A stretch of DNA of 64,000 nucleotides from an uncultured Phycisphaerales bacterium (GCA_963718665.1 OY970359.1:1888001-1952000); one strand, 5' to 3'. Counted from the stretch's first letter, positions 18,743 to 27,473 are shown. Notes: generated by a model not told the origin, from the sequence alone. Made by a program: numbers and translations.

Positions 18743-20074
18743 TTATTCCAGCGTCCGCAGCGACAAACCGAGATTCGCCAGGACCCTTTTGACTTCGTTC
18801 AAGCTTGTTACGCCGAAATTTTTGCAGCCCAGCAGCTCCGCTTCCGTAATCCGCGTCAGCTCTCCGACCGTGCGCAGGTTGAGCTTCAGCAACGCCTTTT
18901 TCGCCCTGACTGACCACTGCAAATCCACTATCGGCTTGCCGGCCAATCCATGGTCGGCTGCGGGCTCTTCGGCAACACTGGCTGCCGGCACCGGGTCAGT
19001 CGGCCCGAACTGTCTGTCCTCCGGCATCATACCAAGCTGCAGGCCCTTGGAATCCAGGATCACTTTTATCTCACGCAAACTCGTCTCGCCGAAATTCTTA
19101 AACGCAAGCAGCTCCGCTTCGGTTGTCCTCAACAGGTCCCCGAGCGTATTGAGATTCATCTTCTTGAGGCAGTTCCTGCTTCGCACCGAAAGCTCAAAAT
19201 CAGACAACGGCGTTTCGAGAATCTGCATCTTACGGGTCTTCTTCTTCTCTGTCTCCTCGTCGTAAACCATCGTCTTGGAGCTTTGGATATCCTTCAGAAA
19301 CAAATTTGCCCGCTTGTGATTCGGATGACACGCCAGAACCTTCTGCACGCATCGCTCGGCCTTGTCGTAATCCGCCTTGTCCTCGTAAATCACCGCCAGG
19401 TTCAGCAATGCGCTTGTGTAAATCGGCGCCGATGATGTAATCGCCTTGTAGTAGTCAATCGCCGCGTCCTCATCGCCGGAAAGGTCGCAACGGTACGCCA
19501 GATGAAACATCGCTTCCTGATGCTTCGGCGAAAGCTCCAGCGCCGCCTTGTAATTTTCGGCCGCCTCATCATACAGCCCCTGCTTCTCACGCAGCCGGCC
19601 AAGCTGATAATGAAACTCCGCGCTTACGTTCTTAAAATTGGCACAACCTTTAAGCTCTTTTTCCGCTGACTCGAAATTGCCTGCCATGCGGTATGTGGCA
19701 GCTTTCTCCAGCGAAACCGCGAGCGAATCTGCCCCTTGTTTTGCACTGGCGTGGAAGTTCATTATCGCTTCGTCGTAATTGCCAAGCCGACGCAGAGTAG
19801 CCGCAAGGCACATAAACTTCTCTTTGCAGTCGTTGCCCTTCTGCAGTTTCTCGACCGCATCGGCGTCTTTCCCCAGGATAAACAGACCTATGCCCGCGGC
19901 CAGACACCCTTTGCCGCCGGTCTTGCTCATATTCTGCTCGACCTGCTCCGCAAAGGCCAACCGACTTGCCTCGCTCGAATGAACCTGCTCTGACAGCTTC
20001 TTTATTTGTTCTATGCTCAGTGTCTCTTCGCCGAACAAATTAATTCCGCTTTGTGTCTGTGTCGTTGCTTCCAT
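18743..20074 (-). CDS. TPR protein with two RNA polymerase alpha-CTD domains
   Basis: TPR repeats, then ELSVRSRNCLKK...EAELLAFKNFGETSL and WSVRAKKAL...EAELLGCKNFGVTSL; GGAG RBS before ATG 20074. Confidence 0.88.
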   Translation of the reverse strand: MEATTQTQSGINLFGEETLSIEQIKKLSEQVHSSEASRLAFAEQVEQNMSKTGGKGCLAAGIGLFILGKDADAVEKLQKGNDCKEKFMCLAATLRRLGNYDEAIMNFHASAKQGADSLAVSLEKAATYRMAGNFESAEKELKGCANFKNVSAEFHYQLGRLREKQGLYDEAAENYKAALELSPKHQEAMFHLAYRCDLSGDEDAAIDYYKAITSSAPIYTSALLNLAVIYEDKADYDKAERCVQKVLACHPNHKRANLFLKDIQSSKTMVYDEETEKKKTRKMQILETPLSDFELSVRSRNCLKKMNLNTLGDLLRTTEAELLAFKNFGETSLREIKVILDSKGLQLGMMPEDRQFGPTDPVPAASVAEEPAADHGLAGKPIVDLQWSVRAKKALLKLNLRTVGELTRITEAELLGCKNFGVTSLNEVKRVLANLGLSLRTLE

Positions 20075-20220
20075 TAAATCTTCTCCTGAAAAAAAACCGC
20101 CGCCGCTCGGATCCTTGAATTTCGGTTTACCAATAGAAAGCAGCATTATAACCATCCTTACCTTTTTTGCAATACCTTTTTAACTATAGCAGCAATAAGC
20201 ACTTACGCAAAATATCAATC

Positions 20221-20258
20221 TTGCGCATAAAAAAGGCCGGACATTTATACCCGGCCTT
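20221..20258 (-). terminator. Intrinsic terminator, repeat family copy 1
   Basis: Minus strand AAGGCCGG-loop-CCGGCCTTTTTTATGCGCAA after the 20286 gene. Confidence 0.75.
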
Positions 20259-20285: not shown

Positions 20286-22481
20286 TTAATGCGAACCGCT
20301 GTAAAGTTCGCCAATCTCATTTTCCGACAAGGCGTAATTGTAAATCCGCACGTCGTCGATAAGGCCGTGGAAGCAACGCCCCTTCAGTTCGATGTTCTCG
20401 CCGATACAAACAGGGAAGCCATTTGTTGCGATGGGACCTGTCCGCGGCCTCGAAACATCCAGTTTCCCGTCAACGTATATGCTCATATTTTGTCCGTCAT
20501 AAACGCACATGACGTTATGCCACTGCCCCGAATCGACTGTGGTCTGACCGTTAAGATAATCACGGGCGGAAACGCCGAAGTGAAAGATGTTTTTGGCAAA
20601 AGAGGTTGACAATCGCCAGGCCGAATCGCCCTTGGTAACAATGCCCGTCCATTCCTGCGGGACGTCCGTTATATTTACCCATGCAGATACTGTTATCTGT
20701 TCGTTGATATCAAAATTCGCCTCGTTGCTGATTTCGACGTAATCACCCTTGCCACTGAATTCAAGAGCTCCGCCCGAAACACCGCCCGTCGGCCGCCATA
20801 CAGGATTGCCCTTTAGTGCGCCATTATTGCCGTTGCCGGAGTTGTCGTAGGCGATTGTCCCCGTGCTTTCGTCAAATTTCCACCATCCGACCAGTTTGCC
20901 GGTATTGAAACTCCATACATCGCCGGTCGTTACTTTGCCGTTGGCGTCAGTTCCGTCAACACGCCAGTAATAAGTCGTGTTCCTGTCCAGTTCCTGCACA
21001 ATCATATTACTATCGCCCGAGACATCAGCCAACAGTGATAACCCGTCTGAGGACGTCCCCATATATACCTTGTTTTCAACAGCATACATTCCGGGCATCC
21101 AGCTTAATTCCAAATCCGCAATCTGGCCGCACATAGTCGCATCAGCCGGTTTGGGTTTAATCGCCTTCGGCTGCCTGTTCAGCGGCATCGCCTCAAGTGC
21201 GGCAAGCTCATCGGCGCTTACGGTTTTAACCGTCAGATTGCCGAAGATGACACGGTACTGTTTATCCGAAACCTTCCACCGCATCAGGACGGAATCACCA
21301 AACTCGGCCGTCACTTTATCACCGTGATACACCGGCTCGTTACCTTCCTGAGTCAGCTTTTGGTAGAAAATGAATGGTCCCTGCAATTTCATTGCTTCAT
21401 TGATTAAGTTCTGCTGTAACTGGTCATTCGGCTCAGCACCGCGGGCAACATTTATCTTCTTTGTGAGCCCCTCTTGTGCCTCCAGTACCGCCGCCATGGC
21501 GTTCATTTGGCTTGGATACTTGCCGTCCGTGATTTCAGCAAATAGCTTAAACCCTTCAATCACACCCGTCTCGTCCTGGTTCGGCATTTTCATCTCGCCC
21601 ATCGTCGTGAAATCAGCCGGGATATTGGGTTCGAATAAATCCGGCAAAAGCTCCGTACCCCACTCGAAACCATCCATAACCATTATCATATTAATCTTCT
21701 GCTCGCCGAGTTTCATCTCCCCCTCGGTTTCTATCCTAACGGGATACTCCGTGGCGACATCAACCCACATACGGCCTGTGAAATTGCTGTAAATGCCTTG
21801 AACGGCCGGCGGATTATTAACTTCAATACCCTTGACTTCAACGCCGTTGATTGTATCTTTGCCGAGGTCCTTATATTGCCCCGACCCCCCGGACACAAAT
21901 TGAGTTACTATTGTCCGCGGGTCCTGCATTTGATTTTTTGACTTCGCCAGCTTTTCATCCGTCAGCGCCATACGCATATACTTTTTCTGGGTGGGCATCA
22001 CAATAATCATCGCCTTTTCGCTGGGATTCACATATATCTGCTGCATAGGGATACCATCAAGAGTGGTTTCTAATTTGGTTCCGTAGCTGGATGAGATATA
22101 CATCTTGGACTCGATTTGCTGACTCTTTTGACCGACAGCTCCTCCTGATTGTTGAATATGTATCCTGCAGACACACGTCTTTATCTGTGCCACTTTGTCT
22201 GCGATTTGTGCCCAGGCGCAGCACGTTACCACAGGCGCTTTGCCTGTTATGGCATATATGCCCGTCAAAACCGCGATGATAATTACCGCGGCAACAGCTA
22301 ATTTTGTAATCGGACTTCTCATGATTATCCTCCATGTACTCGGCTTGAACTGGGCCGATTGATTTTTCGTTTTCTCTGCCAGCGCATTATCGACAGCGTT
22401 ATGCACTCTCGCATCCAGCTCGGCGCTGGGGTTAATTTTCAAATCCGCGATTAACTTTTTAATATTGTCATTTGGTCTCAT
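20286..22481 (-). CDS. Putative anti-sigma factor with LolA-like region and C-terminal LamG (ConA-like) domain
   Basis: ATGA overlap with ECF sigma; WRIIMRSPITKLAVAAVII TM; TYYWRVD..GDVWSF; LVGWWKFDE...GLIDDVRIYNYALS. Confidence 0.8.
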   Translation of the reverse strand: MRPNDNIKKLIADLKINPSAELDARVHNAVDNALAEKTKNQSAQFKPSTWRIIMRSPITKLAVAAVIIIAVLTGIYAITGKAPVVTCCAWAQIADKVAQIKTCVCRIHIQQSGGAVGQKSQQIESKMYISSSYGTKLETTLDGIPMQQIYVNPSEKAMIIVMPTQKKYMRMALTDEKLAKSKNQMQDPRTIVTQFVSGGSGQYKDLGKDTINGVEVKGIEVNNPPAVQGIYSNFTGRMWVDVATEYPVRIETEGEMKLGEQKINMIMVMDGFEWGTELLPDLFEPNIPADFTTMGEMKMPNQDETGVIEGFKLFAEITDGKYPSQMNAMAAVLEAQEGLTKKINVARGAEPNDQLQQNLINEAMKLQGPFIFYQKLTQEGNEPVYHGDKVTAEFGDSVLMRWKVSDKQYRVIFGNLTVKTVSADELAALEAMPLNRQPKAIKPKPADATMCGQIADLELSWMPGMYAVENKVYMGTSSDGLSLLADVSGDSNMIVQELDRNTTYYWRVDGTDANGKVTTGDVWSFNTGKLVGWWKFDESTGTIAYDNSGNGNNGALKGNPVWRPTGGVSGGALEFSGKGDYVEISNEANFDINEQITVSAWVNITDVPQEWTGIVTKGDSAWRLSTSFAKNIFHFGVSARDYLNGQTTVDSGQWHNVMCVYDGQNMSIYVDGKLDVSRPRTGPIATNGFPVCIGENIELKGRCFHGLIDDVRIYNYALSENEIGELYSGSH

Positions 22482-23023
22482 TTGTGAACCTCGCCGTTCA
22501 GTGTGGACCGTAATTTTTCCAGGCCGTACCGGTATCGGCCTAATACCGTATTAACCGAAACATCCTGCGATTCGGCTATCGCGGCAAATTTCATTCCGCC
22601 GTGAATATGCAGCAGCACAACCTCTCTTTGCTCGTAGGGCAATTCTAAAATCGCCCGGCTCAAACGCCTGCTTTCCTCGCCGAAAACCGCTTCGCAATCG
22701 GGGCTGTTTGCTTTCGATGTAATCGGCTGCGCATCATCCAGCGAACCCTGGTTATGTCTGGAATTTGCCCTGATTACGTTTCGGGCGGCATTTGCCACGC
22801 AGGTTGCCAGAAAACCCTTCAAACTGCCCGTCAGCCGAAATCGCCTAAGCTGCAAAAACGATACAAACACATCGTGCACGACATCTTCCGCGGCTGCGGT
22901 ATTTTTCAGCAGAGCGACAGCCAGGGCCACGAGCTCGTGTTTATACTTCTCGTATATCCGCCTGACCGCCTCGCAGTCGCCGCGGTTAAATCGCCAGATA
23001 AGTAACTTATCTTCCAGATTCAC
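22478..23023 (-). CDS. ECF sigma-70 family factor
   Basis: AEDVVHDVF; LPYEQREVVLL...MKFAAIA...VNTVLGRYRYG. Confidence 0.92.
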   Translation of the reverse strand: MNLEDKLLIWRFNRGDCEAVRRIYEKYKHELVALAVALLKNTAAAEDVVHDVFVSFLQLRRFRLTGSLKGFLATCVANAARNVIRANSRHNQGSLDDAQPITSKANSPDCEAVFGEESRRLSRAILELPYEQREVVLLHIHGGMKFAAIAESQDVSVNTVLGRYRYGLEKLRSTLNGEVHK

Positions 23024-23096
23024 TCTTCAATTCCCAAGGGTTCGACAATCGACCGTCAATTATACAACACCGAACGAGGATGTTTTAGTATGTTTG

Positions 23097-23130
23097 GGCA
23101 CATAAAAAAGGCCGGACAAGTTGTCCGGCC
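23097..23130 (-). terminator. Intrinsic terminator, repeat family copy 2
   Basis: Minus strand GGCCGGACAA CT TGTCCGGCC TTTTTTATG. Confidence 0.75.
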
Positions 23131-23152
23131 ATGTTAATGAAGTTATTGTCGC

Positions 23153-24472
23153 TTATTGTTTATCAATCGGCCTGGGGAGGTCCGCTTCGGCGGCATCTTT
23201 GACGCTCAGGTCGCCGTAAATAACGTGGTATGTCTGTGAGCCGGCCGGACGATACCAGAAAATCGCGGTATTGGCATCGTCTAACTTGACGCCTTTGCCG
23301 GCATAAACCCATTTGCCTTCGCCCTTGAAGAACCTTATGAACATAACCCCCTTTTGCAGTTTAAGCCCCAGTTGGGTCTTTTCCTCATCCGACACCGTTA
23401 GCTTGTCAAATTTCTCTTTGATAGTCGCCGCATTTTTTACTATGTGCTCAATCGAGATGTCATCGGGGAAAACACCGTCACCAAGGACTTCGGCCTGAAC
23501 GCGCAGCCCCTCGATAAAATCCTCTTCGGTGGAGCTAAAAAGATTCATATCCTGTTTTTCAACTTTGTAACCCTCAGGGGCATTCATATCGAAAAGCGAC
23601 TCATTCATAGGCACGTCGAACCGCATGTTTTTGCAAATCACCTTCACTTGCCCTTCCTGCTGCAGTATTCGCACCGGAAGTCCTGTTTTCGGATCCGCCC
23701 ATATTTCTATCTCAACTTTGGGATGTTTTGCCTTTAAGCCATACAGGGTTTGGCCGTCGATAACCTGGTCACCTATATCTTCGACAGTAAAGCCCGGGAG
23801 TTTTTCAAGCATAGTTATAACGTTGCGAAGCTGGTCCATATAGTTGGGCATCTGCGGCAGGTCCTTAAGCGAGATATACACCGCTTTTTTGTTGGCGGGG
23901 TCGAGATACAGAATTTGCGAGGTGCCCAAATCAATAATACGCACTGCTTCCATACCGCTTAAAGTCCGCCTGATTTTTGACCCCATAATCATATCGTGAA
24001 TCACAGGCGCATTGCCTTCTTCGCCGACGATAATGTCAAATTCCGCGGTATTGGCGTCCAGAATCGAGCGGATGACACAGTCCCAGGCGAGGCACGGTTT
24101 TGTGCCGCTGCCCGCAAAATAGTGAATACCCACAATCACGGCCACGATTATTACCGCGGCCACAGCAAATTTTGTAATCGTACTTCTCATAATGAACCTC
24201 CAGAAGTTCAAGTTTTGTTTATCCTGATTCGCTTTCCGAAGTTTGAGTGCCTGTTCGCGGACGATTCTGTCCATCACTGCATTTTCGAGGTCATCTTTAA
24301 TGCTGCTGGTGCCATTGGCGATAAGACGCTTTTGAAGCGAGGTTATCTGTTCGAGTTCTTTGCGGCACTCGGCACATGTATTCAGATGTGATTTGACCGC
24401 CTGGTTCTGGCCGGCGTCAAGCAGTCCTTCAATGTAACCTACTAAAAGTTCTCTGCATTGGGAGCAATTCAT
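23153..24472 (-). CDS. zf-HC2 anti-sigma factor with extracytoplasmic LolA-like domain
   Basis: MNCSQCRELL...HLNTCAEC; WRFIMRSTITKFAVAAVII TM; IWADPKTGLPVRI; ATGA overlap with sigma. Confidence 0.85.
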   Translation of the reverse strand: MNCSQCRELLVGYIEGLLDAGQNQAVKSHLNTCAECRKELEQITSLQKRLIANGTSSIKDDLENAVMDRIVREQALKLRKANQDKQNLNFWRFIMRSTITKFAVAAVIIVAVIVGIHYFAGSGTKPCLAWDCVIRSILDANTAEFDIIVGEEGNAPVIHDMIMGSKIRRTLSGMEAVRIIDLGTSQILYLDPANKKAVYISLKDLPQMPNYMDQLRNVITMLEKLPGFTVEDIGDQVIDGQTLYGLKAKHPKVEIEIWADPKTGLPVRILQQEGQVKVICKNMRFDVPMNESLFDMNAPEGYKVEKQDMNLFSSTEEDFIEGLRVQAEVLGDGVFPDDISIEHIVKNAATIKEKFDKLTVSDEEKTQLGLKLQKGVMFIRFFKGEGKWVYAGKGVKLDDANTAIFWYRPAGSQTYHVIYGDLSVKDAAEADLPRPIDKQ

Positions 24473-25008
24473 AACTGCACCTCACTTTCCTGTGCTGCTT
24501 CGTCTTTAAGTATCTCTCGCAACCGTGCATAAGCCCTCGAAAGAGACTTGGTCACCGTTCCTATGGGGATATTCATTATGGTCGCGACGTCTTTGCAGGT
24601 GTGCCCGCCATAGTATCGAAGCAAAATCAACTGCCTTGAAAAATCATCGAGCTTGGCAACTGTTTTTGCCAACGGCCAGTCACGTCCGCCTTCGGATTGG
24701 GCGGGCATTTGAGCCAGTTTCTCGGCGGTCTGACGCTCTTTTTGCTCGATTCTTACCTGCTCTTTGGCGACGCGATTGGCAACGCCTAACATCCAGGCGA
24801 AAAACGATTCCGGCTTTTCGAGTGAAGACAAGCCGAAATAGCACCTGACAAATACTTCCTGCAGCGCCTCTTCCGCCAAATCGCTTCTTCCAAGCTGCCC
24901 CGCCAAATACCCCAAAACAGGCCCTTTGTATCGCCGGACGAGGTGTCGAAAATCGTCCGGATGGCCGTCAAGGCAACGCTGAATGTAAAATCCGTCATTT
25001 TCAGGCAT
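24469..25008 (-). CDS. ECF sigma-70 family factor
   Basis: FRHLVRRY, AEEALQEVF, FFAWMLGVA, IPIGTVTKSLSRA; likely start ATG 25008. Confidence 0.92.
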   Translation of the reverse strand: MPENDGFYIQRCLDGHPDDFRHLVRRYKGPVLGYLAGQLGRSDLAEEALQEVFVRCYFGLSSLEKPESFFAWMLGVANRVAKEQVRIEQKERQTAEKLAQMPAQSEGGRDWPLAKTVAKLDDFSRQLILLRYYGGHTCKDVATIMNIPIGTVTKSLSRAYARLREILKDEAAQESEVQL

Positions 25009-25092
25009 TTTCAAGCTCCACATACTAACATATCAAAAAAACCCTGGGTCTTCACTATATAGTGATGCAAACGCCCCTTTTGCGACAAAAAA

Positions 25093-25125
25093 ATAAAAAA
25101 GGCCGGGCAAAACCACCCGGCCTTT
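25093..25125 (-). terminator. Intrinsic terminator, repeat family copy 3
   Basis: Minus strand AAAGGCCGGG-loop-CCCGGCCTTTTTTAT. Confidence 0.75.
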
Positions 25126-25147
25126 ATGTTTGTACACGATATTCAGG

Positions 25148-26773
25148 TCATAATCCGCCGTCAACAACCCATCGTTTTGCGGGATTGTCGTTTCTCACCG
25201 CCAGGTTAAACTTTTTAACACTTGACTCGCGGCACTTCACAAAGTAAGCAGATTGCTCCGCCAACCAGGAGGATTTTCCAACCTCCACGATTGGTAATTG
25301 CTTTTGCACATCCATCCCATACTTTGCTGCCATTTCGCACTCACTCTTGAATTTCTTAGCATAAGAGTCAGGCACGAATTTTCGCATTTCGTTGAAATCC
25401 AACCTTGAAACCGCACCGTAGTATTTCTTCAACACCTCTTGCGGTGACATTTTTGCATAAGTATCGTTATCCGCCAGAACCTCCGGCTCATTCGACCATT
25501 TTATTTCCTCTGTGAGTTGCAGTTTAGAATCATACTCTCCCGTTATTACAAATCGCTTAGCGGAGTTCGCGTTGGAGAGACGCACATTAACTTCTCTCGG
25601 ACGAAGTTTAATTTCATACGGTACAAACCAGCCCGGATACTGACCGGACTTGAATGGTTCTCCCAGAGAGATGACCTGCAATCCGCCAAGATAGCTCTTC
25701 AGATTATCATCCACAGCTGACATAGGCCATAATTTGAGGAATTCACCCCAGTTTTCATCCGCACAGGCCTTAAAAAATGCCTCAGCGGTCTGTTTGGGCG
25801 TCATACTCACATAGGTTTCATTGTCCGGCAGGACCTTGGGCTGCTGTGACCATATAACATCCTGCGGCAACTCAAGCGTGAACAGCCCATCGTCGATTTG
25901 CGGATTGTATTCAATCTCATTGACCTCGAAAATCAGGACATCTCCTTTGTCTGTGTGCACAAATACCTCAAAACCTTTCAGGAGCTTGGTTTCCGCGTCA
26001 AAATAATAGACCTTCTTGTTGTTGGAGTCCGAGATGAACTTGTTCCTGAGGTAATCATTTGTATAGTTGCCGGTTGCTTTACTCTCAATCTCAAGCACTG
26101 ATTTTGGTCTGCTGCTCGATACTTCTCGTCGCAGATGCAATTCACTATCCGGTCGATTTTTAGCTTCCTGTATAGCGCTATCGAGAAGGCCATCAACGTT
26201 CAACAGATGTCCGAACCAGGTATCGAAACAGCCAATAGGATACGGCCTCTCTGCTTTGACGGCGTAATTGGGCCTCATTAACATTATTGTCGAGTTGCCG
26301 TCCGTAACAATCACGCGCTGGGGTTTCTCGATTCGCCATCGCAAAATACCCGCGTCGTCCACTTTCTTCCACATCTCGATTGGCACAAAATCATACTCCA
26401 GGCCGATTAACGCGAAGTTGTCGCCCGGAAGGGTTCGCATCTGCGCCTTGATGTGGATTGACCGCACGTCTTGAATTGCCTTAGTTGCCTCGGTAAGCAC
26501 TTGGACTGCTGCCGAAGCCGTTGGATTTGTCCTGTTCCATATCGTTGCTAAAACCACTACCCCTATTGTTATCACCGCCGCAGCGGCGAATTTGGTTATT
26601 CTGTTGTTCATAATCGTTCTCCATAAACTCATTCCGGCGGCCGGTGCCTTTGCTGCTATGGCCCTGTCAAGGGCGTTCGCGGCGTCGGCAAGAATCCGGT
26701 CTTTGTTAATAACATCCGGTTTGATTCGTATTTCTTTGGCCAGTTTTTCTATCTTTTCGTTATTCATTTTCAC
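25148..26773 (-). CDS. Putative anti-sigma factor with LolA-like region and duplicated C-terminal domain
   Basis: Overlaps ECF sigma; WRTIMNNRITKFAAAAVI TM; repeats WSQQPKVLPDNETYVSMTP / WSNEPEVLADNDTYAKMSP. Confidence 0.75.
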   Translation of the reverse strand: MKMNNEKIEKLAKEIRIKPDVINKDRILADAANALDRAIAAKAPAAGMSLWRTIMNNRITKFAAAAVITIGVVVLATIWNRTNPTASAAVQVLTEATKAIQDVRSIHIKAQMRTLPGDNFALIGLEYDFVPIEMWKKVDDAGILRWRIEKPQRVIVTDGNSTIMLMRPNYAVKAERPYPIGCFDTWFGHLLNVDGLLDSAIQEAKNRPDSELHLRREVSSSRPKSVLEIESKATGNYTNDYLRNKFISDSNNKKVYYFDAETKLLKGFEVFVHTDKGDVLIFEVNEIEYNPQIDDGLFTLELPQDVIWSQQPKVLPDNETYVSMTPKQTAEAFFKACADENWGEFLKLWPMSAVDDNLKSYLGGLQVISLGEPFKSGQYPGWFVPYEIKLRPREVNVRLSNANSAKRFVITGEYDSKLQLTEEIKWSNEPEVLADNDTYAKMSPQEVLKKYYGAVSRLDFNEMRKFVPDSYAKKFKSECEMAAKYGMDVQKQLPIVEVGKSSWLAEQSAYFVKCRESSVKKFNLAVRNDNPAKRWVVDGGL

Positions 26774-27320
26774 ACTCTGTATTCAAAAGGGACCTTACTT
26801 TTTCAATCCCGTAACGATATCTGCTTTGCACCGTGTTGATTGAAGCTCCAACTTGTTCGGCAATCTGCTGAAAGGTCATATCTCCCTGTACGTGCAGGAT
26901 AAATACCTCTCGCTGCTCATAAGGCAGTTGGCCAAGCGCGTCAAACACCTGCTTGGCGCCTTCACTGGTTGTTAGCCGGCTGCTCGGCTCATCGGTATTC
27001 GCCGCAAGCTCAACCAGCCCTACATCCACGTTCGCCGACCTTGTTCTTTTTCGCAGCAGGTCGCGCGCACGGTTTGCGACGCAGCTTATCAGGTAACTCC
27101 GCAGGTTACTGTGAATCCGCAAACCCGGCACAGCCGCCGCAAAATCAATAAACGCGTCGTGAAGGCAATCTTCAGCGGTTTGAACGTCGTGAACAAGCGT
27201 CACGGCAACACTGACTAAAATATCCGTATACTTTTCATAGAGCTGGCGTAAGGCGTCTTTGTCGCCCCTTTGCAGTCGTTTCAATATTTGTTTGTCTTGC
27301 GCCATTCCCAAACTTTCCAA
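26760..27320 (-). CDS. ECF sigma-70 family factor
   Basis: GDKDALRQLYEKY, AEDCLHDAF, LPYEQREVF...INTVQSRYRYG; start may be ATG 27305. Confidence 0.92.
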   Translation of the reverse strand: MESLGMAQDKQILKRLQRGDKDALRQLYEKYTDILVSVAVTLVHDVQTAEDCLHDAFIDFAAAVPGLRIHSNLRSYLISCVANRARDLLRKRTRSANVDVGLVELAANTDEPSSRLTTSEGAKQVFDALGQLPYEQREVFILHVQGDMTFQQIAEQVGASINTVQSRYRYGIEKVRSLLNTECENE

Positions 27321-27433: not shown

Positions 27434-27473
27434 TTGCGCATAAAAAAAGCCGGGCATAAATACCCGGCCTTTT
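27434..27473 (-). terminator. Intrinsic terminator, repeat family copy 4
   Basis: Minus strand AAAAGGCCGGG-loop-CCCGGCTTTTTTTATGCGCAA after the DUF1080 gene. Confidence 0.75.

Follow-up and report, generated by a model that had tools for sequence, protein, structure and literature searches.

Three neighbouring genes in a stretch of DNA from an uncultured Phycisphaerales bacterium (GCA_963718665.1 OY970359.1:1888001-1952000; 64,000 nucleotides, referred to throughout as the window) appear to carry a second translation start inside their coding sequence. Each gene follows one for an extracytoplasmic function (ECF) sigma factor and encodes an anti-sigma-like membrane protein, and each has a Shine-Dalgarno (SD) sequence and an in-frame ATG just before the codons of its membrane helix. 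Judged by sequence comparison, this SD+ATG pair is kept in the three genes and in hundreds of their relatives in sediment planctomycetes, and the internal start is under selection and not a decayed relic of a fusion, because the choice of arginine codon is biased, substitutions keep the SD, SD cores are in excess, the local RNA structure is open, and SD+ATG persists in other families. The signal is maintained at the RNA level, is coupled to the ATG, lies in open mRNA and is linked to a large periplasmic domain of the LolA/RseB fold. The gene family likely gives two proteoforms, a full anti-sigma factor and a shorter sensor that would lack the head.

The initial annotation had placed three 15-nucleotide words on the minus strand, with the A of their ATGs at 22322, 24190 and 26611, and all three are exactly as it described (Table 1), GGAGG or GGAGA ending 6 nt ahead of an in-frame ATG in every case. 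Its numbering of the internal methionine in gene 3 has to be revised, though the coordinates hold. The open reading frame call begins at GTG 26773, but ATG 26767 is the likelier first codon because the printed starts of close homologues fall there, and the internal residue therefore becomes Met53 instead of Met55. SD-dependent initiation is evidently used in this genome (G000), since the tail of its 16S rRNA contains CCUCCU and GGAG is most frequent 6-9 nt ahead of first ATGs; the spacing within the motif, 7 nt in 170 of 211 ATG copies, falls inside that peak. All five ECF partners in G000 that have a transmembrane (TM) helix and a long periplasmic part possess the SD+ATG, and of its three short ECF partners one has only a weak TTG, one a GTG located 12 nt after GAGGTG, and one no printed candidate. 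A sigma-70 promoter search, with ECF-type promoters outside its scope, called none near 22322, 24190 or 26611 (12 in the region, 9.9 expected).

Relatives were gathered by an order-wide pattern with Trp fixed and Arg and Met free, which matched 93 of 251 genomes (150 of the 153 matches being listed), and by two scans of the collection anchored downstream of the site only, with W, R and M all free, which gave at least 132 and at least 123 loci from 29 and 7 of 64 parts. From 285 loci came 267 distinct junctions. A filter that took no account of the W, R and M codons removed 11 of these (by eye, six chance matches and five family members, all five with the ATG), leaving 256, or 234 after dereplication at 80% flank identity, and 40 further regions from multi-copy genomes supplied 35 more for pooled counts. 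The homologue records are labelled Sedimentisphaerales or Phycisphaerae.

The clearest trace of selection is in the arginine codon. Among the 234 dereplicated junctions, arginine at the site is encoded by AGA or AGG (AGR) in every one of the 169 copies with the start codon, compared with 2 of 8 that have lost it; the pooled set gives 190/190 and 7/15, and the scans without a fixed Trp 149/149 and 3/7. Conserved arginines in sensor-domain motifs of the same genes are AGR in only 6 of 73 cases, AGR makes up 36-41% of arginine codons in these genes even in the AT-richer head, and across the genome only 57 of 359 arginines directly after tryptophan are AGR. The bias that the initial annotation had suspected at this codon is thus real and far above every one of these controls. 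The neighbouring sigma genes provide a measure of elapsed time: their conserved arginine columns are AGR in 23/51 and 24/40, and their mean top-codon share is 0.39, so silent sites had time to randomise.

Changes in the encoded peptide tell the same story. At position 1 of the motif, 205 copies collected irrespective of tryptophan have Trp in 120, Arg in 39, Gly in 28 and Leu in 8. The arginines are AGG (34), CGG (3) and AGA (2), and the glycines GGG (20), GGA (7) and GGT (1), GGC being absent here and 35-50% of glycine codons elsewhere. In the codon that follows, Ser is solely AGT or AGC and Glu mostly GAG, and the SD is retained through register shifts and non-synonymous changes that yield AGG AGA, GGG AGA, TTG GAG, GGA GAG and AGA GGT. 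The description of W-R-x-I-M as a conserved protein motif, offered in the initial annotation, consequently does not stand, for Trp gives way to Arg (AGG) or Gly (GGG/GGA) with the SD kept; these comparisons make it preferable to treat the word as an RNA signal that shows in the peptide by way of its codons.

Of 211 ATGs, 198 have an SD core ahead of them, far more than under a synonymous null (mean 64, maximum 81), as do 82 of 95 copies that lack WR (null 21); a core is found in 7 of 21 start-less copies and ahead of 9% of 1601 other internal ATGs. The ATG itself is kept in 211 of 234 junctions and the SD tends to vanish where the ATG vanishes, so that the methionine, whose free replacement by other residues had been considered at the outset, is not freely replaced. 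The RNA around the site is open as well, with a computed opening energy of 4.3 kcal/mol against 7.3-8.0 for recoded nulls and 8.1 for start-less copies. The value for real starts in G000 is 7.7 and that for the genes' own upstream starts 8.3, the internal site of gene 2 being less open at 9.0. A-rich codons after the internal ATG match the ramp seen at real G000 starts; stops in the +1 frame are also raised in the block (4.6 vs about 3.0), which we treat as a by-product of these codons.

The same arrangement extends beyond close relatives. A profile of the short form matched 24 of 121 genomes sampled across the class, and 19 of 30 sigma-linked homologues from more distant families (f9-f25) have an SD+ATG no more than 13 codons ahead of the helix (null mean 7, maximum 13; background windows 31/353). 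Distant homologues without any WRxxM have it in 14 of 25, encoded within peptides such as KGRFNKM, RRFWM, TGDFVM and LGGTKM. Losses, by contrast, are concentrated within the order. A lineage with a short tail lacks the ATG in 14 of 14 members (one has GTG, with no SD), and the ATG is also absent from single lineages with other C-terminal domains. By lineage, most members have an SD in 1 of 8 without a plausible start codon vs 15 of 18 with ATG, and copies with near-cognate codons (CTG, ACG, GTG, ATT, ATA) mostly retain it (7/11). From this distribution, loss of the internal start goes mainly with replacement of the large sensor domain of the LolA/RseB fold by a short tail. Short-tail ECF partners (G000:C1:716344; L012, L024, L125, L131 and others) have a helical outer part of about 75 residues with 'KSPAEM...AYRRGG' and no internal start, and form a natural negative control. 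Sensor homologues are also found free-standing, with no sigma gene: L338 (G325:C88) has a signal-like start and L340 (G270:C63) the lipobox LAVGGC. Because these stand alone, the sensor domain is able to work as an exported protein, and the site may plausibly have arisen by fusion. No free-standing gene starting at this Met was found within the order among 267 anchored matches, the downstream anchor favouring conservative family members.

The predicted short product has sequence features suggestive of export. After the internal ATG the n-region carries a charge of +2 or +3 in 229 of 237 family members, and an A-x-A-like word, mostly at residues 33-37, occurs in 185 of 208 copies with the start and 7 of 21 without it, the pattern ([AVTS]-[WFYL]-[AG] at 31-46) being a loose one applied without a chance control. 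A lipobox appears in 3 of 269 short forms, which are therefore not lipoproteins. The 345-residue short form of gene 2 was modelled with a pLDDT of 89; in Foldseek searches with the model its first domain matched LolA (E 7e-9) and RseB (E 2e-6), and by sequence the sensor domain matches RseB weakly (E 0.22). Among 39 family members Pfam MucB_RseB found no match and DUF2092 matched six. One relative (L241, member 38 of alignment A1) has a PDZ domain in its periplasmic part.

We regard initiation at the internal ATG as decidedly probable. Ribosomes would start there, just before the membrane helix, besides starting upstream, where the full membrane anti-sigma factor would be made by translational coupling to the sigma stop. 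Computed structure suggests that the short form could be the more abundant of the two, because the internal site is open and the coupled upstream start more structured. Lacking the sigma-binding head, the short form would not bind sigma. It would use the membrane helix as a Sec signal and probably be cut at the A-x-A-like site 33-37 residues on, cleavage being only slightly favoured over its staying anchored. Released, it could be the two-gene operon's own effector, a pool of hydrophobic-ligand-binding domain that soaks up inducer and so, we propose, sets the threshold of the full receptor and gives negative feedback once sigma is on. Second in likelihood is a partner role like that of RseB, in which the short form would bind the full one and shield it. 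Of the two-isoform model put forward in the initial annotation, the selected internal SD+ATG holds up, and the short protein itself is a prediction. Its alternative, that the site is a fossil of fusion between an anti-sigma domain and a secreted-protein gene, is disfavoured as the sole cause, the SD+ATG being selected; fusion as the site's origin is possible.

Several observations weigh against a functional internal start and its exported product. The sequences are all related, so that counts and p-values overstate independence, and an SD plus AUG is, according to passages of a proteoform review, no guarantee of initiation (PMC13515050). The ATG site is missing in 11 of 30 distant and 23 of 234 close homologues, and the internal start must therefore be dispensable. 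At the putative cut site, the aligned residues of gene 2 are A-W-D, an imperfect match, the conserved aromatic residue could be structural, and an A-x-A site would be equally expected if the full form were cut by signal peptidase as RsiV is. The whole block is synonymously conserved (ACA 188/213, AAA 203/213, GCG 171/213), the Met (211/234) is no better conserved than neighbouring Ile columns, within-genome synonymous identity slightly exceeds that between genomes (0.70 vs 0.65, p 0.008), and heads are swapped at the junction, 7 of 17 sensor clusters having both ZAS and short heads. Since conservation is block-wide, heads are shuffled and within-genome identity is raised, recombination contributes to the conservation of the block. 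As far as sequence comparison goes, it does not explain the amino-acid changes that preserve the SD or the decay of the SD after the ATG is lost.

Taken alone, recombination would make the block of about 60 nt a homogenised junction for swapping heads and sensors, its SD+ATG the unused relic start of a once separate secreted-protein gene, spread by gene conversion. The shuffling and block-wide synonymy just described would fit, as would the small within-genome excess of identity, the existence of free-standing exported homologues and the near-identical terminator hairpins that close each cassette. This is nonetheless improbable, given that the between-genome identity nearly equals the within-genome value, that non-synonymous changes and register shifts keep the SD, that the SD decays after ATG loss in several lineages, and that distant families hold an SD+ATG made of unrelated nucleotides and peptides. 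Still harder to maintain, and largely refuted, is the proposal that W-R-x-I-M is a genuine protein motif, such as a juxtamembrane amphipathic helix, with AGA a product of local AT-rich codon bias. Trp and Arg are common beside membrane helices, and third positions in the region are AT-rich; yet Trp is replaced by Arg or Gly in 67 of 205 copies, almost exclusively as AGG, GGG or GGA, AGR reaches only the share given above even in the head, and a null drawn with head codon usage gives 67 SD cores vs the 198 observed.

Other readings accept an RNA-level signal or even the internal start. The SD-like word might serve an elongation pause, mRNA structure or stability, or standby loading of ribosomes, with negligible initiation. 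Internal SD-like sites are discussed, and contested, as elongation modulators in passages of the literature (PMC5100845), and the downstream hairpin described below is enriched. A pause, however, needs no in-frame ATG at a fixed spacing such as the 7 nt seen here, the SD disappears together with the ATG, near-cognate replacements of the start mostly keep it, and a pause before the helix is translated would presumably not aid targeting, so that we give this reading a very low probability. Unlikely, though to be taken more seriously, is a model that shares the internal start with the explanation we prefer and differs in the location and role of the product: the short form would be an uncleaved signal-anchor protein, like short PBP1b, acting as a head-less partner or dominant-negative subunit and not as a free ligand sink. 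Such a product would fit the long, strong hydrophobic core (scores 2-3), the length of the c-region (putative cut site 33-37), the imperfect A-x-A of gene 2 and the fact that RseB and MucB bind and shield the periplasmic part of their anti-sigma factor (passages of PMC7400510). Against an anchored product, the A-x-A-like site accompanies the start in the proportions given above, and free-standing homologues appear secreted or lipidated.

The internal starts lie within an array of three tandem minus-strand cassettes, each comprising an ECF sigma gene, a membrane partner gene and a terminator-like hairpin (Table 1). In each, the partner's reading frame begins at the stop of the ECF sigma gene or overlaps it. 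Across the family, 147 of 148 loci with enough flank have a sigma gene upstream, and in 64 of 117 the partner start overlaps the sigma stop by -4. The heads of genes 1 and 3, about 50 residues long, match no Pfam family; the best ESM Atlas score for that of gene 1 (0.87, to unnamed clusters) is a lead only, and an HxxxCxxC motif occurs in 35 of 256 family junctions. Because the heads have no Pfam match and a sigma gene is nearly always upstream, we call genes 1 and 3 putative anti-sigma factors on gene context, from which sigma binding and inhibition by the partner proteins are likewise presumed. Homologues of gene 3 carry the source name 'outer membrane lipoprotein-sorting protein'.

Table 1. 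Features of the ECF array, numbered from the first letter of the window
Feature	Positions	Strand	Remarks
ECF sigma factor, pair 3	26760..27320	-	Pfam Sigma70_r2 E 3e-11, r4_2 E 2e-12
Anti-sigma-like membrane protein 3	25148..26767	-	head of ~50 residues without Pfam family, TM helix, large periplasmic part
Internal start 3, TGG AGA ACG ATT ATG	26609..26623	-	SD GGAGA 26622-26618, ATG 26611-26609; predicted 487-residue form; anti-SD duplex -6.4, opening energy 4.6 kcal/mol
Putative signal-peptide-like segment, short form 3	26510..26611	-	basic n-region, hydrophobic core, A-S-A at 32-34; from sequence only
Predicted GCCGC-UGCG-GCGGU hairpin, Ala4-Val codons	26574..26587	-	25-38 nt after internal AUG; weakly supported
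Terminator-like hairpin closing pair 3	25098..25125	-	
ECF sigma factor, pair 2	24469..25023	-	Pfam Sigma70_r2 and r4_2
Anti-sigma factor 2, 439 residues	23153..24472	-	zf-HC2 (ZAS) head E 6e-9, TM helix, LolA/RseB-fold domain, second domain; start overlaps sigma stop (ATGA)
Internal start 2, TGG AGG TTC ATT ATG	24188..24202	-	SD GGAGGT 24201-24196; predicted 345-residue form; anti-SD duplex -10.5, opening energy 9.0 kcal/mol
LolA/RseB-like domain of gene 2	23591..24085	-	about residues 36-200 of short form, boundaries from model
Terminator-like hairpin closing pair 2	23110..23130	-	
ECF sigma factor, pair 1	22478..23023	-	Pfam Sigma70_r2 and r4_2
Anti-sigma-like membrane protein 1, 731 residues	20286..22481	-	short head, TM helix, LolA-like region homologous to gene 2 (family profile E 4e-95), C-terminal LamG (Pfam Laminin_G_3 E 7e-31); start overlaps sigma stop (ATGA)
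Internal start 1, TGG AGG ATA ATC ATG	22320..22334	-	SD GGAGG 22333-22329; predicted 678-residue form; anti-SD duplex -9.3, opening energy 4.3 kcal/mol
Terminator-like hairpin closing pair 1	20233..20258	-	

Four similar GGCCGG...CCGGCC terminator-like hairpins (27449-27468 and the three of Table 1) flank the cassettes, an arrangement like that of a duplicated modular array. Two further tandem ECF pairs are present in G000 outside the window (C1, sigma stops 2355170 and 2357475), with partners that carry TGG AGA nnn ATT ATG. The helix-rich second domain of gene 2 (23156-23570) ends in YxVIYGDL, is common to many family members and may resemble the H-X9-DG C-terminal motif of planctomycete DUF1559 proteins. 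Cysteines stand beside the putative cut site in gene 1 (TCCAWA) and gene 2 (PCLAWDC), at 22209-22225 and 24070-24095, where a disulfide or altered cleavage is possible. Directly downstream of the array, the minus-strand gene at 18743-20155 encodes a protein that is TPR-rich by sequence; its C-terminal end presumably consists of two RNA polymerase alpha-CTD-like repeats.

In the family, codons 9-13 downstream of the internal ATG read GCC GCN GCG GCG GTG. They could fold into a hairpin of 5 bp with UGCG as its loop, and they include GGCGGTGAT, which differs at one position from a perfect complement of the anti-SD. The GCCGC-UGCG-GCGGU form is the commonest fold at this place across the family, and its free pair is C:G in 144 of 234 copies vs 8 of 144 A[AV]AA runs in G000. 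Covariation is weak (12/64 vs 5.4 expected) and the fold is equally stable in start-less copies (-7.6 in both groups); the hairpin was set aside as a part of the mechanism.

Bacterial genes with in-frame internal starts are already an established class, of which this anti-sigma family would be a variant. Passages of a review describe N-terminal proteoforms of IF2 (alpha and beta), CheA (L and S), ClpB, SpaO/Spa33 (long and short) and PBP1b (mrcB, short) (PMC13515050), in which, as here, one gene with an internal in-frame start gives a shorter protein minus an N-terminal module; the short form of PBP1b likewise is missing 46 N-terminal residues. Unlike those genes, the internal start in the present family would remove the sigma-binding head and make an export signal out of a TM helix, and it is conserved in a paralogous family across the class. 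No anti-sigma factor is named in those passages (PMC13515050), and literature searches at the level of titles and abstracts, with subscription papers mostly out of reach, found no internal start described in an anti-sigma gene.

The closest parallels in ECF signalling, as presented in passages of the papers cited, are RseA-RseB of E. coli and MucA-MucB of P. aeruginosa, which also combine an ECF sigma factor, a single-pass anti-sigma factor and a sensor with the fold of LolA and the RseB N-terminal domain (PMC7400510; PDB 3m4w, 2p4b). RseB and MucB sense lipids in the periplasm, have a LolA-like domain and shield their anti-sigma factor (PMC7400510). Their genes stand apart from that of the anti-sigma factor, in operons of the rseABC type, whereas the proteins described here have the LolA-like domain fused to the anti-sigma part, and a free copy of the domain would be a second product of that one gene; RseB also differs from them in sequence and in its second domain, and scores below LolA proteins. 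In RsiV of B. subtilis and RsiP, anti-sigma factors that signal peptidase cuts at site 1, a signal-peptidase-like site follows the TM helix, as the loose A-x-A pattern may indicate for the present proteins, the outer domain is itself the receptor, and regulated cleavage releases it; the passages on them describe no internal start (PMC4183432, PMC8844934). RsiV-type cleavage would account for the A-x-A site and not for the SD and ATG. With its zf-HC2 head, ECF coupling and single TM helix, gene 2 is like the class I ZAS/zf-HC2 anti-sigma factors (RsiW, ChrR, RskA type), while the heads of genes 1 and 3 are too short for the four-helix ASDI as described in passages of the same source (PMC7406223).

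ECF signalling is usually modelled as one sigma factor and one anti-sigma factor. If the internal start is used as proposed, a head-less copy of the sensor made from the same gene would add an unannotated layer that gene callers miss, and the short form could buffer the signal, give feedback or replace RseB. Cleavage of its signal peptide would erase the N-terminal trace of the internal start, a blind spot of N-terminomics recognised in passages of the proteoform review (PMC13515050). More generally, an apparent protein motif can be a disguised ribosome-binding site, and this can be screened for in any family. A wider proposal, which is tentative and which we hold at somewhat less than an even chance, is that in a class-wide planctomycete ECF family a single gene supplies both an RseA-like receptor and an exported effector of the RseB/LolA type. 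A selected internal ribosome-binding site would turn the membrane helix into a signal peptide, so that the ratio of receptor to free sensor would be set at translation; the start would be kept through the shuffling of heads and sensors and given up where a short tail takes the sensor's place.

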